From IMG/VR virus record IMGVR_UViG_2541047680_000003: 5,317 nucleotides of DNA; one strand, given 5' to 3'. Shown here piece after piece: positions 1-5,317 of the stretch. Position 1 is the first letter of the stretch, and each line of letters begins with the position of its first letter. The stretch is from a virus. Its lineage: Duplodnaviria; Heunggongvirae; Uroviricota; Caudoviricetes. The notes beneath the pieces were generated by a model. It made no database searches. It saw nothing but the letters and a program-made list of their open reading frames with translations, and was not told the DNA's origin. The translations under genes were made by a program, and so were the position numbers.

Positions 1-1
1 A

Positions 2-592
2 GAACGCCGTGATCTGTTGAATAACGTTCTGCGCATTGGTGGTTTTATGACACCAAAAGGGAAGCCTAAAGTGCCGGAAGCACTGTTTAAAAACATCTGC
101 GACTCTCTCGGCCTAAAAACAGGAAAACGTCGCGGCAGAGATGGCGATAAGCGCCCGACATTGCGTTTTGTTGAGCCTGAGTCTGTAGCATTTATGCTTG
201 ATATTCTTGCGCAACGTCAGGAGGACGGTATGACGTTGAAAGCTCGCAAGGCGGAAAAATCAACGACCGAAGTGGATCGCGATTTGTCATTAAATATATA
301 TATGAATGGTGAAACGCGATCCACAAACACGGAGGAACAGGATCCTCCTCGTTCAGCTATATCACAGGCTTTAGCCGTATTGCCGGTGGCTGTTCCTGAG
401 TCCTGGGCGATGAGTGCTCTGCCATCAGCTGAACTGGAATCTATCAGGAGGTGGTCAGTTGACAGCATCGCATACACGTTTGCAGCCCTTTATATGACTG
501 AGTTTATGGATTTGCTGTCCGGTCATGAGATTAAGTTGCTGAAGGCTTTTATAGGCCCACGACATGCCAGCGATGAGTTTTGTGCAGTTTAG
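2..592 (+). CDS. Hypothetical protein, reading frame open to the window edge (probably 5'-partial); possibly the C-terminal part of a RepA-like replication protein
   Basis: Frame 2 has no stop from position 2 to TAG 590..592. Internal start candidates are TTG 17 (no RBS) and ATG 47 (weak GGTGG RBS). The coding region contains an ori-like inverted repeat with AT-rich core at 272..324. The RepA assignment is inferred from position and from N15/PY54 origins lying inside the 3' part of repA; no protein motif recognised. Confidence 0.45.
   Translation, partial: ERRDLLNNVLRIGGFMTPKGKPKVPEALFKNICDSLGLKTGKRRGRDGDKRPTLRFVEPESVAFMLDILAQRQEDGMTLKARKAEKSTTEVDRDLSLNIYMNGETRSTNTEEQDPPRSAISQALAVLPVAVPESWAMSALPSAELESIRRWSVDSIAYTFAALYMTEFMDLLSGHEIKLLKAFIGPRHASDEFCAV
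272..324. other. Candidate replication-origin element: perfect 10-bp inverted repeat (GTGGATCGCG / CGCGATCCAC) flanking a 33-bp, about 80% AT spacer containing (TA)5
   Basis: Seen directly: 272..281 is the reverse complement of 315..324; the spacer 282..314 is ATTTGTCATTAAATATATATATGAATGGTGAAA. Three GATC sites lie within 275..344, one in each repeat arm and one in a downstream AGGATCCT palindrome (339..346). Confidence 0.4.
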
Positions 593-1274: not shown

Positions 1275-1292
1275 GTTGTGGAAGGAGTATTT

Positions 1293-1517
1293 ATGAACTG
1301 TAACAAAAATGAAGAAACTCGCCTGGTTTGGACGGTAGTAATCGGAGATAAAAAGGGCGGTGAAGAGCCTCATTTTGATTATTCTGTGGCTTTGCAGGCT
1401 CTCATCCTTGAAGCGCAGAGATACCAACAAGAGATGCAGAAGAACCCTCAACTGGAACCTCGACCAATTGGCCTATTCTGCGAGCGAGTATCAGCGGCTG
1501 AACTCCCTGATATCTGA
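1293..1517 (+). CDS. Hypothetical protein (74 aa from ATG 1293; ORF track gives GTG 1278)
   Basis: Strong RBS AAGGAG (1282..1287) 5 nt before ATG 1293. Last gene of the small-ORF cluster, followed by palindromes and a promoter. Confidence 0.55.
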   Translation: MNCNKNEETRLVWTVVIGDKKGGEEPHFDYSVALQALILEAQRYQQEMQKNPQLEPRPIGLFCERVSAAELPDI

Positions 1518-1530
1518 TGCCCTCCAACAG

Positions 1531-1549
1531 CTGATCAGGTTCTGATCAG
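1531..1549. promoter_or_regulatory. Tandem palindromic 8-mers CTGATCAG-GTT-CTGATCAG (each containing a GATC site); possible protein-binding site
   Basis: Seen directly: CTGATCAG at 1531..1538 and 1542..1549, 11 bp centre to centre; a third CTGAT at 1514..1518. Function is inferred. Confidence 0.3.
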
Positions 1550-1578
1550 TTAGTAAAGCAAACTATAAAAACACCTGT

Positions 1579-1598
1579 CCCCGTGACTGGTCACGGGG
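1579..1598. promoter_or_regulatory. Perfect 9-bp/2-nt/9-bp palindrome CCCCGTGAC-TG-GTCACGGGG: operator-like site or terminator stem for the upstream operon
   Basis: Seen directly. It lies about 20 bp upstream of the -35 of the immunity-leader promoter and about 60 bp after the stop of the 74-aa ORF. It is followed by TAAAATGTCTTTT, which is not a clean U-tract. Confidence 0.35.
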
Positions 1599-1618
1599 TA
1601 AAATGTCTTTTCAAATTA

Positions 1619-1648
1619 TTGACGTGTGCGTCGTTTTGACGGTAAAGT
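1619..1648 (+). promoter_or_regulatory. Sigma70-like promoter of the immunity leader (TTGACG -35 at 1619..1624, TAAAGT -10 at 1643..1648, 18-nt spacer)
   Basis: Hexamer match by eye. A second TTGACG at 1636..1641 has no good -10. No transcription start site data. Confidence 0.4.
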
Positions 1649-1680
1649 TACTACGCTGCGGTAAATCCCGCAGCCGGGAC

Positions 1681-1704
1681 TCTCAACCCCGAAATCCGAA
1701 CGAC
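1681..1704 (+). promoter_or_regulatory. Upstream antisense target boxes (seqA / a1-b1 analogue): TCTCAAC 1681..1687 and CCGAACGAC 1696..1704
   Basis: 1681..1687 is complementary to the single-stranded GUUGAGA of the ncRNA (1814..1820). 1696..1704 is complementary, with one G-U pair, to the 9-nt loop 1799..1807. The order and spacing fit antiparallel pairing. Confidence 0.5.
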
Positions 1705-1708
1705 GCAC

Positions 1709-1731
1709 AACACGCGCCAGCGTGTTTTTTT
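1709..1731 (+). terminator. Rho-independent terminator / attenuator in the immunity leader
   Basis: Stem AACACGC (1709..1715) and GCGTGTT (1720..1726), loop GCCA, with a run of seven T at 1725..1731. It sits between the upstream target boxes and the structured RNA. Confidence 0.65.
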
Positions 1732-1762
1732 GTGTGTATAAGCCTGCGCATATCCGAATTAT

Positions 1763-1838
1763 GGTAGCTCAGGCGGGGCAGCCGAAAGGCTGGCCGGTGT
1801 CGTTTGGGCCGGTGTTGAGAACCCCGCTTGGGCTACCA
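1763..1838 (+). ncRNA. Structured antisense immunity RNA of the P1 C4 / P4 CI / N15 CA type (tRNA-like; probably excised from the leader transcript)
   Basis: A 16-bp closing helix (1763..1778 with 1822..1837, two G-U pairs) encloses a GAAA-tetraloop hairpin (1779..1792) and a second hairpin (1793..1813, 9-nt loop), plus an 8-nt single strand GUUGAGAA (1814..1821). ACCA follows the helix at 1835..1838. The loop and single strand are complementary to boxes both upstream and downstream. No long ORF in 1518..1897. Confidence 0.6.
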
Positions 1839-1849
1839 CCCTATAGAGA

Positions 1850-1889
1850 TTCTCAACTCTGGTGGTAGCACTGTTCTTCCAAACAAGAG
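1850..1889 (+). promoter_or_regulatory. Downstream antisense target boxes (seqC / a2-b2 analogue) abutting the RBS of the first operon gene
   Basis: TTCTCAAC (1850..1857) is a perfect 8-nt complement of ncRNA 1814..1821. CCAAAC (1879..1884) is complementary to loop 1802..1807 and sits immediately before the AAGAG Shine-Dalgarno at 1885..1889. Confidence 0.5.
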
Positions 1890-1897
1890 TGCATACC

Positions 1898-2062
1898 ATG
1901 TTCAAATTCAAATTTGCGGCAGTCGTTCGCACAGACAAAAAGTCACACATCCATCATCTTTCCACTATCGCGTCATCTGAACGGGAAGCTCGTCGCCAGT
2001 TCGCCAGCCGGTTTGTCCTGGTATTGTCTGCCCGTATTCCGGTGCGCGAGGTGGCTGCATGA
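1898..2062 (+). CDS. Small protein (54 aa), first gene of the antirepressor operon; Icd-like by position only
   Basis: ATG 1898 with AAGAG RBS 8 nt upstream. The ORF track shows a longer 1862..2062 form, but that start would lie inside the RNA target region. The stop overlaps the next start as ATGA (2059..2062). Confidence 0.5.
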   Translation: MFKFKFAAVVRTDKKSHIHHLSTIASSEREARRQFASRFVLVLSARIPVREVAA

Positions 2063-2292
2063 ATCAGGTAAAAATGAACACTGTTGGCCTGCTGGAGTCG
2101 TTGGATGAACGTCTGGCTCAGGTCTATGCGCTCGTGTCATCAGCCCATCGGACAGTATCCAGCTGTGAGGCGTCGATTTATCTATCAGAAGCCGGGAAGC
2201 TCCTTCAAATTGCGTGTGAGCTAACACACGAAGCACAGGGGTATTCAGCATCTCTCTCGTCGCAATTGCAGCACAATAAGGAGGCCAAATGA
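2059..2292 (+). CDS. Hypothetical protein (77 aa), middle gene of the antirepressor operon (AntA-like by position)
   Basis: ATG 2059 overlaps the upstream stop (ATGA), with GAGG at about 2048..2051. Its own stop overlaps the next start (ATGA at 2289..2292). Confidence 0.6.
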   Translation: MNQVKMNTVGLLESLDERLAQVYALVSSAHRTVSSCEASIYLSEAGKLLQIACELTHEAQGYSASLSSQLQHNKEAK

Positions 2293-3071
2293 GCGCGTTA
2301 GCTGTATTTTCGTTTCAGGAAGAGCATCAGGTTCGTGTAGTGATGATTGATAGCGATCCGTGGTTTGTAGCGGCTGATGTTTGTAATGCCATCGGGATTA
2401 TCAATCATCGTGATGCTGTTGGTAAGTTGGATGAAGACGAAAAGGGGGTCGGTTCAACAGACACCCTTGGAGGTAAACAGGGAGTGACAATTATCAACGA
2501 ATCCGGCCTCTATACCCTAATCCTCCGCTGCCGTGATGCGGTGAAGCAAGGCACAACAGCTTGGCGGTTTCGCAAATGGGTAACGAACGAAGTCTTGCCC
2601 TCTATTCGCAAAAATGGAGAGTACGTTTACATCGAGCCTGAGCCAATGCGAGCAGCGGAGCCGTTGAACTGGAGGCAGAAAGAGTATCTGCGAGGGCTGA
2701 TTAACGATATAGCACAAAGTTTTCAATACCGAAATGCCTGGATTAGTGGTGTATGGTTGGCTTTGCGTCGGGCGTGTCGTAATCCATCCCCGAACCCCAT
2801 AACGGTTGATGATTTGCCAGCAATTACGGCAGAACTGCGCCGGATTTTGACGGCTGCTGAGTCGGCATTGGGGAACATGCGCACGTATGAACGAGAGTTG
2901 TTGCGTGATGTTGTTCGTGGGGGTAGGCGGAGTATGTCGTGTGGTGATTTACCCATCACCGATATTAACTCTGATCTGGAAAAGGCGTTACCCGCGCATT
3001 TTGAACTGGCAGTTCAAAAACTTGAGCAGTTATCCGCGCAGCTAAAGCCAGCAGAAATCACCAATAAATAG
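2289..3071 (+). CDS. ant: Phage antirepressor with an N-terminal Bro-N-type domain (260 aa)
   Basis: The N-terminal 110 residues (FSFQEEHQVRVVMIDSDPWFVAADVCNAIG ... ESGLYTLILRCRDAVKQGTTAWRFRKWVTNEVLPSIRKNGEY) fit the Bro-N / antirepressor N-terminal domain pattern as I remember it. Strong RBS AAGGAGG (2278..2284). Translationally coupled to the upstream gene. Confidence 0.8.
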   Translation: MSALAVFSFQEEHQVRVVMIDSDPWFVAADVCNAIGIINHRDAVGKLDEDEKGVGSTDTLGGKQGVTIINESGLYTLILRCRDAVKQGTTAWRFRKWVTNEVLPSIRKNGEYVYIEPEPMRAAEPLNWRQKEYLRGLINDIAQSFQYRNAWISGVWLALRRACRNPSPNPITVDDLPAITAELRRILTAAESALGNMRTYERELLRDVVRGGRRSMSCGDLPITDINSDLEKALPAHFELAVQKLEQLSAQLKPAEITNK

Positions 3072-3207
3072 GGTTGACCAGCCCGAATTTATGCCCTTCT
3101 TAGAGAAGGGAAGCCTCGCAGTCGGGGCGGTGATGTCTGTGGTTGCAGCCGCGTTTCCTCCGTTACTTCTGCCCTTTGCAGGGGGCAGGCGAGGTAGGTC
3201 ACACAAC

Positions 3208-3231
3208 AAGGCACCGTTAATTCGGTGCCTT
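3208..3231. terminator. Hairpin between the convergent ant operon and telN; candidate bidirectional terminator
   Basis: Stem AAGGCACCG (3208..3216) and CGGTGCCTT (3223..3231), loop TTAATT. Flanking T-rich or G/T-rich sequence on both strands is only moderate. It lies 12 nt from the telN stop. Confidence 0.5.
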
Positions 3232-3242
3232 TACTGTATGCT

Positions 3243-5126
3243 TTAACCGAAATATGTCAGCCATGCTAACTGCATTGCTGACATGGGGCTGTTTGCACTG
3301 CCGGACCACGCATAATTCTGGCCATTATAATGAAACTCGACAACGTATGAGCCATCACCAATATTTCTCACTGGCTTAAATACCGGCTTAGATACAGGCG
3401 AAGAAGGTGCAGGCGGTTGCTGTTCTTCTACGCTCTCTTCCTCTATCTCAATTTCGTCGTCATCCAGATCGTCATCCTCTGATAATTCATCCGCCAGTTC
3501 AGGTATTGCTTCCAGTTCTTCTTCGTCAGGCATAACGATTTCTGGAGTATCTATTTTCAGTTGCCATTGTCCGTTTTCGCCAACAAATTGCCCCAGAGCA
3601 TCAGCAGCAAATTCCAGGTATCGACTAATCATTGTTGGGCTAAATTTGAACGCTCTTAGAGTGCTGTTCGTGATTTTTATAGAGGGGTCCTGCTCTACCA
3701 GCTGCTTAACTGTGTTATGCAGACGAACCCCGGCATCTCCTCTGGCGAATCCAGGCATTTCGTCATCAAGCTGCTGCAATGCTTCCAGCCTGGTATTTTC
3801 GTTTCCAGTATTTGGCCTCCATGTCTTTGAGAAGTTGGCCAGCTTGAATTGCTTATAGTGTAATTGAGTGTTTTCATCGTCATGGCCTAAGATTTCCATA
3901 AAGAAAACATCCTCATCTACGTTTTTCCAACGAGGATCTACGCGGAAAAACATTTCATACGCAATACGGGCATAAATAGCACGACTATCTTTATAAACAC
4001 GGCGGTTATCTTTGAAAAATGATTTAACCCACGGGTTAAAAGCCTTTGCTAATATGGCATTAATACGTCCGTTTTCAGAGCGTGTGTCGTTATCTCCATA
4101 ACCTTTAACGACATCATCAAAATCAGATGCTGCTGGGCATGAGCGAAGTACATTTATTAAATAAACAAATGTTTTTGCTTCGCATAATGTATATATTTTT
4201 CTGGTTATATCATCAGAAGTTCTTTTTTTAGCTTGGCCTAAAAAATCAACGGTATACTTACCAGAAACAGTAAATGTACCTTGATACATAATCTCAATCA
4301 TTCGTCTTCCTGACAATGCAGCAAGTGCAAATGCCAAAGGAGCCATACCTGAACGAGTGTTTAGATTATTTAATGTAGCAGGGCTATTTATAATATCGTA
4401 AATAGCTTGCATATATTTAGGGTAATCAATGACCACCACGTTACGTTTCTTATTGTGCAGAACGTCCGCCCATCGTTGCTGGATAGATGCGCGTTCGGCA
4501 GGGCTTAGTTGAAGATGATAGAGAATCTCATGGTTAACTTTTAGCTGATTCAACTCCTCAAGCAAGGCAGATCCTTGCTGTAGTAATTTATATAAATAAT
4601 CGCGCTTATCTTTCCAGTTATCGCTAGTTAAATCAGAAATGGCGAATTGCCACTCTTTATATTTATTTGATAATTTTAATAACTTATTATGGCTTTTGTT
4701 ATCACCAATTCTGATATTAGATAAATCTTCTGATAAAGGGAGAATTAATTTTAATTTTGCCTGTAAAGCTGACATTCTCTGGCGAATATCGGCAGCAGGT
4801 AGAGAAAGCCATGACAATAGCTCCTCATTATATAAAGGATACTTTTCAGATAGGCGATGTATATTTTTTTCAAAGCTATGATGAAGTTTATCATCAAACC
4901 GTTTTCTGGCCCTGCTCATATATGCATTGAATGTGTTGGCTGTAATTCTTTTTTCTAATCCTTTCCCCCTAAACTTTCGCTTGTCATTAAATAATGCATT
5001 TTTAAATTTTAATGCAACAGCCTTTATTTTTTTTGTTTTTTCCCCTTGAGGACGGTCAGAGTTATCTATTGACTCAACATCGCTAACAAGTGAGTTTATT
5101 AATTCACCGATTTTTACTTTGCTCAT
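3243..5126 (-). CDS. telN: Protelomerase (telomere resolvase), TelN/TelK family, 627 aa
   Basis: Length and overall sequence match my recollection of N15 TelN (631 aa). Tyr424 in QLHYKQF coincides with the published TelN catalytic Tyr424 (TelK Tyr425). RR at 274..275 and K300 are in tyrosine-recombinase-like positions. An acidic D/E linker (residues about 533..570) precedes a small C-terminal domain. Strong RBS (GGAGAGG on the minus strand) before ATG. The gene is adjacent to a half telomere palindrome. Confidence 0.93.
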   Translation of the reverse strand: MSKVKIGELINSLVSDVESIDNSDRPQGEKTKKIKAVALKFKNALFNDKRKFRGKGLEKRITANTFNAYMSRARKRFDDKLHHSFEKNIHRLSEKYPLYNEELLSWLSLPAADIRQRMSALQAKLKLILPLSEDLSNIRIGDNKSHNKLLKLSNKYKEWQFAISDLTSDNWKDKRDYLYKLLQQGSALLEELNQLKVNHEILYHLQLSPAERASIQQRWADVLHNKKRNVVVIDYPKYMQAIYDIINSPATLNNLNTRSGMAPLAFALAALSGRRMIEIMYQGTFTVSGKYTVDFLGQAKKRTSDDITRKIYTLCEAKTFVYLINVLRSCPAASDFDDVVKGYGDNDTRSENGRINAILAKAFNPWVKSFFKDNRRVYKDSRAIYARIAYEMFFRVDPRWKNVDEDVFFMEILGHDDENTQLHYKQFKLANFSKTWRPNTGNENTRLEALQQLDDEMPGFARGDAGVRLHNTVKQLVEQDPSIKITNSTLRAFKFSPTMISRYLEFAADALGQFVGENGQWQLKIDTPEIVMPDEEELEAIPELADELSEDDDLDDDEIEIEEESVEEQQPPAPSSPVSKPVFKPVRNIGDGSYVVEFHYNGQNYAWSGSANSPMSAMQLAWLTYFG

Positions 5127-5170
5127 CTTTCCTCTCCTGATTATCCGCTCGGATTATCGTAACACAATTT
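5127..5170 (-). promoter_or_regulatory. telN translation-initiation and promoter/operator region (RBS, GATTATC direct repeats, small dyad ATCCG-CT-CGGAT)
   Basis: On the minus strand the motif order is TTGTGT, 16 nt, GATAAT, then CAGGAGAGGAAAG and ATG. The GATAAT element occurs twice (plus-strand GATTATC at 5139..5145 and 5152..5158). The exact -35/-10 assignment is uncertain. Confidence 0.35.
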
Positions 5171-5249
5171 GAGAATAAGATAACTAATAACGCGTTAACT
5201 TAGCCACAAACTAACAGAACACAATAACGGATAGTAAACAAAAACACAA
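5161..5249. repeat. Three direct copies of AACACAAT (5161..5168, 5218..5225, 5242..5249) upstream of telN; candidate accessory protelomerase-binding (tos-like) repeats
   Basis: Seen directly. The motif resembles the CACA(C/T)AAT segment inside the telomere half-site (5295..5303) and the CACACAAT of the remembered N15 telRL. Confidence 0.5.
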
Positions 5250-5290
5250 TATCGGAACGTTAAAAATTGTTCCTTGACTTTGTTCTGAAG

Positions 5291-5317
5291 ATCAGCACAT
5301 AATTCCCCATTATACGC
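5291..5317. other. Half of the telomere resolution palindrome (telO/telRL half-site); the window ends at the dyad centre, implying a hairpin telomere
   Basis: ATCAGCACATAATTCCCCATTATACGC differs at only about three positions from the left half of N15 telRL as I recall it (TATCAGCACACAATTGCCCATTATACGC|GCG...). The last bases CCATTATACGC equal the left half of the 22-bp telO palindrome. Confidence 0.8.

Follow-up and report, generated by a model that had tools for sequence, protein, structure and literature searches.

In lysogens, prophages of the N15 family are linear plasmids with closed ends, and their protelomerase, TelN, resolves the ends again once these have been replicated (PMC2847241, PMC10612081). 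The stretch of DNA analysed here, 5,317 nt long and called the window in what follows, raises the question of whether its last bases represent such an end. A preliminary description had proposed that the window ends exactly at the dyad centre of a protelomerase target palindrome, that the element is in its linear plasmid-prophage form, and that it is a distinct family member with a co-varying TelN. With a probability of about 0.88, the sequence ends at the hairpin turn of an N15-like (Ravinvirus) E. coli linear plasmid prophage, positions 5290-5317 being the telN-proximal (telL) half of its target site.

Sequence and register of the half-site

The last 28 nt of the window, GATCAGCACATAATTCCCCATTATACGC (5290-5317), have the layout of one half of an N15/phiKO2-type tel site; the 27 nt singled out by the preliminary description lie at 5291-5317. 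Innermost is half of the central telO palindrome, CCATTATACGC (5307-5317, plus strand), which is 11/11 identical to both N15 and phiKO2 and with which the window stops at the dyad centre. It is preceded by a 3-nt spacer, TCC (5304-5306, plus strand), whose sequence is free to vary, and by a 14-nt outer repeat, GATCAGCACATAAT (5290-5303, plus strand), the counterpart of the N15 L3/R3 repeat. The outer repeat matches N15 at 12/14 positions and the telK-side repeat of phiKO2 at 13/14, and its 3-nt spacing to telO is kept. Membership was judged by the outer-repeat pattern xATCAGCACAyAAT at 3 nt from telO. On the telN side, hardly any variation is seen in the clade at positions 15-27 from the centre, and the telO half, which in the relatives runs on into GCGTATAATGG, is unchanged in 34 window-type subtelomeres except for one probable error.

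Across all 28 positions, the half-site is identical at 25 to the left (sopA-side) half of N15, TATCAGCACACAATTGCCCATTATACGC, at 25 to the telK-side half of phiKO2, and at 23 to the reverse complement of the telN-side half of N15; PY54, the third site that the preliminary description had named for alignment, gave no match in a BLAST search with 5130-5317. At a fixed place, agreement of at least 25/28 has a binomial chance of 1.3e-12, and agreement of at least 23/28 one of 3.6e-10. These figures bear out the suggested resemblance of the tail to an N15 telRL half.

The N15 record (AF064539) gives telRL as TATCAGCACACAATTGCCCATTATACGC followed by GCGTATAATGGACTATTGTGTGCTGATA, with the cut annotated at 24802/3. 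When 5130-5317 was searched by blastn against 2.3 Gb of phage records, window positions 5155-5317 aligned with N15 24965-24803 on the minus strand (E=9e-5). Since base 5317 falls on N15 24803, and N15 is cut at 24802/3, base 5317 is the first telN-side base of the dyad centre. The relatives lead to the same base. The base equivalent to 5317 is directly followed by the exact reverse complement in L001, L004, L007, L098 and others, and directly by the sopA-side half in L005, L006 and L017. This switch to mirror or sopA-side half at that very base makes the centre assignment exact. Furthermore, in the relatives' contigs that reach the centre, the symmetry point is in every case the base after ...CCATTATACGC, which settles the register. 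Both the N15 alignment and the mirror point of the relatives therefore place the end of the window exactly where it had been proposed.

The second, inverted half is missing from the window, which stops at the centre; in the relatives, it is either a perfect mirror (telLL-like) or the sopA-side half (telRL). A partner arm internal to the window is ruled out, as the 11-mer CCATTATACGC occurs only once in a scan of both strands.

By its synteny with the adjacent telN, the half-site is assigned to the telN-proximal half of telRL. On the virion map of N15 we take this to be the right half, and in the prophage the telL end. The preliminary description had likened it to the left half of N15. Of the two N15 halves, the left one is indeed the closer in sequence, but the synteny points to the other. 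The closer match to the left half is due to the 3-nt spacer only, and the two N15 halves are not distinguishable by sequence alone. The depositor of PhiR46_1 (PV340565) labels the same end 'telL site': the record starts 11 nt past the centre, and the annotation covers 22 nt there.

The protelomerase gene and the rest of the window

The half-site lies beside a complete telN (3243-5126, minus strand), which encodes a 627-aa protelomerase (telomere resolvase) and is transcribed away from the telomere. The gene starts 191 nt inside the end. The distance from centre to telN start is 191 nt in the window and 192 nt in N15 (24803 to 24995), with half-site and telN divergent. Over its full length, the protein is 77% identical to N15 TelN, and it matches the TelK structure (PDB 2v6e) with E=1e-294, TelK being aligned over residues 1-536. 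All four Pfam domains, TelK_N, TelK_muzzle, ResT-TelK_cat and TelK_stirrup, score above their gathering scores. Alignments to N15 TelN and 2v6e show that R275, K300 and Y424 (in HYKQF) are kept. From the TelK structure paper, we take Y424 of TelN (Y425 of TelK) to be the catalytic tyrosine and R275 and K300 to belong to the active site. The identity to TelN and TelK settles the assignment of the protein.

Upstream in the window, the 3' end of a large RepA-type replication gene, encoding the RepA C-terminus, occupies 1-592 (plus strand) and is followed by several small ORFs on the plus strand. Rfam identifies an isrK RNA (1655-1730, plus strand, 56.9 bits) and a C4 antisense RNA (1757-1843, plus strand, 74.4 bits), followed by an Icd-like ORF (1898-2062, plus strand), a 77-aa ORF, and the gene for a Bro-N protein (2289-3071, plus strand). 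This set, from isrK to Bro-N, is the secondary-immunity/antirepressor locus of N15 (N15 genes 30-33, cA). The gene order of repA, small ORFs, C4-type RNA with icd-like and antirepressor genes, telN and telomere is that of N15 genes 29-37 and of the relatives. The sopAB genes, the cB/cro/Q switch and the lambda-like virion genes lie beyond the 5.3-kb window and are found on contigs that encode an identical TelN (L004-L013). Half-site, telN and gene order together support the earlier attribution to an N15-like linear plasmid prophage. YDC107_1, the best match among phages, carries the classification Ravinvirus.

The Bro-N gene and telN converge, and between them, at 3205-3232, lies a GC-rich hairpin, AAGGCACCG-TTAAT-TCGGTGCCTT, flanked on both strands by T-rich tracts; in phiKO2, a putative bidirectional terminator is annotated at this position. 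The window is also a mosaic. Positions 1-915 are about 98% identical to one lineage (L005/L007 type), 864-1280 are 98% identical to the L002/L010 type, which over 2-420 reaches only 84%, and 1281-5317 are 98.7% identical to a third set of relatives. This pattern points to frequent recombination among E. coli N15-like plasmids.

The subtelomeric arm

The last 191 nt of the window (5127-5317) are non-coding. The part between the telN start codon and the half-site (5127-5289) is the subtelomeric arm, the counterpart of the telN-side arm of the N15 tos region, with 68.5% identity to N15 over 163 nt (blastn) and with conserved blocks in an alignment of seven family members (alignment A1). The motif AACACAAT occurs here three times on the plus strand, at 5161-5168 within ATCGTAACACAAT, a block kept in 7/7 sequences of the alignment, at 5218-5225 and at 5243-5250. 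These are its only copies in the window, all within 5161-5250, against an expected 0.32, and 0/200 shuffles reach three; copies 2 and 3 rest on this shuffle test together with alignment A1. The copies resemble the outer repeat of the half-site, and their blocks are conserved among N15, phiKO2, Pseudocitrobacter and IMG/VR relatives in the same alignment. They are equivalent to the accessory repeats in the tos region of N15, for which the PCR primer tosROC-2 ends in the same TGTGTTACGAT block (PMC2847241).

The telN promoter must also lie in the arm at 5127-5289. On the minus strand of 5127-5317, no consensus promoter match was found at the scan threshold. The sole promoter match in the arm, TTGACT-18-CATAAT (5274-5303, plus strand, 10/12), faces the telomere and has its -10 element inside the half-site; it has no significance over shuffled sequence and shows no conservation in N15. 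Over 3000-5317, ten promoter matches compare with 6.5 ± 2.6 in shuffles, and there is no excess.

What follows the centre in relatives

Relatives were gathered from an assembly collection, with 115 blocks listed for the identical TelN protein, and from IMG/VR, GTDB genomes, PLSDB, RefSeq E. coli and further protein look-ups. The contigs examined fold back perfectly, join the sopA side, or end within a few tens of nucleotides of the base equivalent to 5317. We counted 59 distinct contigs that reach the centre from the telN side. Specifically, 22 run on into the sopA/sopB side, as in virion-form telRL (e.g., L005, L006 and L091-L095), 15 continue as a long perfect mirror image, 15 stop after a short palindromic overshoot of 6-63 nt, 3 end exactly at the centre (pPEC011-4, i.e. 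L090, and two metagenome scaffolds, L100 and L110), and 4 are irregular past the centre. CP014491 (L102), counted among the 22, is in fact a long fold-back that has one mismatch at the centre, which brings the true split to about 21 and 16. Several of the short overshoots equal (k-1)/2 for k-mer sizes of 55, 77, 99 and 127. About 30 further contigs stop before reaching the centre.

Individual records illustrate how such ends are deposited. Past the dyad centre (36743 onward), the 'complete genome' of YDC107_1 (CP025712.1) holds a mirror copy of the telN region with three fragmentary 'protelomerase' CDSs, which mark it as an assembly fold-back through the hairpin. RefSeq flags the pPEC011-4 record (NZ_JBRAXZ010000005.1) as circular, although the record ends on the tel dyad centre and its junction, an artificial one, is spanned by a CDS annotated as 'tail assembly protein'. 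The replicon is linear with hairpin ends, was wrongly closed into a circle and, with its 36 kb, is probably incomplete. The IMG/VR record IMGVR_UViG_2791355284_000001 (92,470 nt; L041/L042) has telN at both ends in opposite orientation, each end overshooting the centre by 22 nt, and amounts to an inverted dimer: the assembly has gone round the other hairpin and includes an entire plasmid of about 46 kb twice. Two contigs start with untrimmed Nextera transposase adapter remnants (…AGATGTGTATAAGAGACAG; L021 1-55 and L082 1-39). In L082, telomere-proximal DNA follows the remnant directly, at 9 nt from the centre; a search of L021 for the tel core found none.

Is the end a hairpin?

The window breaks off at the turn of the target site, beside a complete telN, which argues for the telN-side hairpin end of an N15-like linear plasmid prophage. 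Base 5317 is by far most likely the end of the source record itself, natural or trimmed, since a random window boundary would hit this base only about once in 5000. Such ends do exist, as is seen from three relatives that finish exactly at the centre. As a counterpoint, De Bruijn assemblers usually overshoot the centre, and exact stops make up only 3/59. The 35-nt tail of the window is absent from the viral, genome and metagenome contig collections; the best contig is 99.906% identical and not the same.

A hairpin and a break at an internal palindrome cannot be told apart by a contig end alone. The half-site could accordingly stem from an intact, unresolved telRL, as in virion, circular or lytic-replication DNA, with the assembly broken at the palindrome. 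The 22/59 contigs that pass through the centre into the sopA/sopB side speak for this, because they show how often telRL-form DNA or assembler joins turn up in assemblies, from isolates and metagenomes alike. We nevertheless consider this origin unlikely: the family is kept in lysogens as a hairpin-ended linear plasmid (PMC2847241, PMC10612081), 30/59 contigs have a fold-back, as expected from strands running round a hairpin or from telLL intermediates, and an exact break at the centre is predicted no better by an unresolved site. It is less credible still that the source runs on as a long inverted duplication, an assembler fold-back like that of YDC107_1, with the window boundary on the mirror point by chance or placement. 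Fifteen contigs of relatives are long fold-backs of this kind, among them CP025712 with its mirrored and broken protelomerase CDSs, and the 92-kb inverted dimer extends the pattern to a whole plasmid. A random cut would fall on the mirror point only with the low frequency given above, and even a true duplication would leave the reading of 5317 as a hairpin telomere unchanged.

The terminal 28 nt might also be no tel site at all and resemble one by accident. Only the shortness of the motif could be held in favour of this view, the probability of which is negligible. The binomial figure for at least 25/28, the conserved spacing to a bona fide telN, the 163-nt arm alignable to N15 in BLAST, and the full palindromes at the 5317-equivalent base in dozens of relatives refute it. 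For the preferred reading, a telN-side hairpin end, the hairpin state of this particular molecule would follow from the known biology of the N15 family, and cleavage of the half-site by the TelN of the window may likewise be expected by analogy.

Variation of the half-site among relatives

The preliminary description had pointed to TAATTCC in the window against CAATTGC in N15. The differences are real; they are located at position 18 from the centre (T for C, CATAAT vs CACAAT) and at position 13, in the spacer (C for G). From them, a distinct family member with a co-varying TelN had been suggested. The element is indeed distinct from N15, as its TelN is 77% identical, but the co-variation fails, since identical TelN proteins occur with several half-sites. 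Ten contigs (L004-L013) encode a TelN identical over all 627 residues, and eight of them reach the centre. Among these identical-TelN contigs, the telN-side spacer is TCC, TTC, TAC or ATC (L004-L012), and one contig has CACAAT instead of CATAAT. The two sides of phiKO2 differ as well, one with CATAAT and one with CACAAC. Furthermore, within one and the same element, the sopA-side half of contigs that read through (L005, L094) has another spacer and a more degenerate outer repeat, with up to 5/14 differences, e.g., AACGAAACATAAT. Because one enzyme must process telLL, telRR and telRL, the flagged positions cannot be specificity determinants. Changes in core or arm occur only among relatives whose TelN is at most about 57% identical (L022, L069, L072, L079), such as a Xenorhabdus half-site, CCATTATACAC followed by GTG..., and IMG/VR contigs with AAATATACGC followed by GCG... 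and CCCATTTAACAC followed by GTG....

Within the clade, the spacer alleles are TCC, TTC, TAC, ACC, ATC, ATA and CCC, i.e. at least seven with essentially one TelN. In the closest contig (L098), three of the five differences from the window are consecutive bases of the spacer (9016-9018, ATA, against TCC at 5304-5306), which is possibly a single multi-base event or an assembly error at the contig end. A test of per-site diversity did not clearly show the spacer to be hypervariable relative to the surrounding non-coding DNA; several other free non-coding positions in the arm have an entropy at least as high as that of spacer position 13 (1.13 bit). Since its diversity does not exceed that of other free arm sites, we take the spacer to be an unconstrained gap. 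That the spacer (5304-5306, positions 12-14) is more than a passive, uncontacted gap, with an unusually fast turnover, appears very improbable. The clustering of three of the five differences and the number of alleles speak for it; the entropy comparison and the ATA allele, which lies at a contig end where an assembly error is possible, speak against it. If true, fast turnover would suggest patch repair or conversion at telomere resolution, or selection that distinguishes co-resident telomere phages.

Discussion

The steps by which such an end would arise are carried over from work on N15 and phiKO2; site, register, gene and synteny are what was observed in the window. After infection, the cos-circularised genome would carry a full telRL, each half made of the 14-nt outer repeat, the 3-nt spacer and the 11-nt telO half. 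A 56-bp site is enough for processing (PMC3540006), and TelN binds as a head-to-head dimer and bends the DNA (PMC3575837). Such a dimer would make staggered cuts around the centre through Tyr424 and rejoin each strand to its complement, giving two covalently closed hairpins, as described for TelN (PMC10612081). RepA would initiate bidirectional replication inside repA, and replication round the hairpin would produce the perfect palindrome telLL, to be resolved again by TelN; N15 replication begins inside repA, and its duplicated ends are re-resolved by TelN (PMC2847241). TelN stays on its product and blocks SbcCD (PMC12624138), and would in the same way remain on this telomere and shield it. 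By analogy, the three AACACAAT repeats in the 163-nt arm probably load extra TelN.

The end of the window is a known feature of an ordinary, widespread E. coli N15-like element and holds nothing new of substance. Telomere phages have turned out to be widespread (PMC12042878), a survey of the N15 group has noted that many records are wrongly called circular (PMC7969092), and near-identical E. coli elements are already in GenBank, one with a telL annotation. The use of the finding lies elsewhere. It gives a base-exact end rule for N15-like replicons, which end at ...CCATTATACGC, about 191 nt upstream of telN. It also indicates that many public records of the family are mis-closed as circles, duplicate sequence by folding back, or run past the hairpin (in our sample, by at most 63 nt). 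Besides, the relatives provide a map of natural variation at the positions that one TelN tolerates, namely the spacer, position 18 and the degenerate sopA-side outer repeat, which could be of use in the design of TelN/telRL vectors.

Comparison with known systems

The PY54 Tel/pal, Borrelia ResT and Agrobacterium TelA systems carry out the same reaction on the same idea of a palindromic target. To our knowledge, the ResT and TelA sites are unrelated in sequence. The PY54 pal site is a 42-bp perfect palindrome whose central TACGCGCGTA is common to PY54 and N15 (PMC3540006). The window ends in TACGC, the sole part that it has in common with PY54 pal, and the PY54 flanks differ. A PY54-type site was therefore rejected, the BLAST search of 5130-5317 against the 2.3 Gb of phage records having given no PY54 match either.

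The closest characterized system is that of N15 telRL/tos and TelN (AF064539), in which the layout is the same, the 11-nt telO half is identical and a divergent telN lies about 190 nt away. N15 likewise has accessory repeats in the arm and an adjacent antirepressor operon with a C4-type RNA, then repA. In contrast to this shared architecture, TelN is 77% and the arm 68.5% identical between the two, the outer repeat differs at 2/14 positions (G for T at the outer end, CATAAT for CACAAT), and the spacer is TCC in the window and AGT/TGC on the two sides of N15. The telK-side half of phiKO2, AATCAGCACATAATAGCCCATTATACGC (AY374448), equals the window at 25/28 positions and has the CATAAT variant in common with it. 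phiKO2 differs in its spacer (AGC), in its subtelomeric arm and in its Klebsiella host, and the rest of the window is only 75% identical to it over short stretches.

Among E. coli elements, YDC107_1 (CP025712) is 96.9% identical over the whole window. PhiR46_1 (PV340565), with telL annotated, is 93.5% identical over the 73% of the window covered. The nearest contig, JAEUXW010000069.1 (GCA_016774755.1; L098), is 99.906% identical over 5316 nt, with five differences, none of them in telN, and a TelN of 627 aa. Gene order and telomere are the same in all three, although the window is mosaic when set against most such elements. These relatives differ from the window in how their records treat the turn: the window stops on the centre, whereas PhiR46_1 overshoots it by 11 nt, JAEUXW010000069.1 overshoots it by 36 nt, and YDC107_1 folds back completely.
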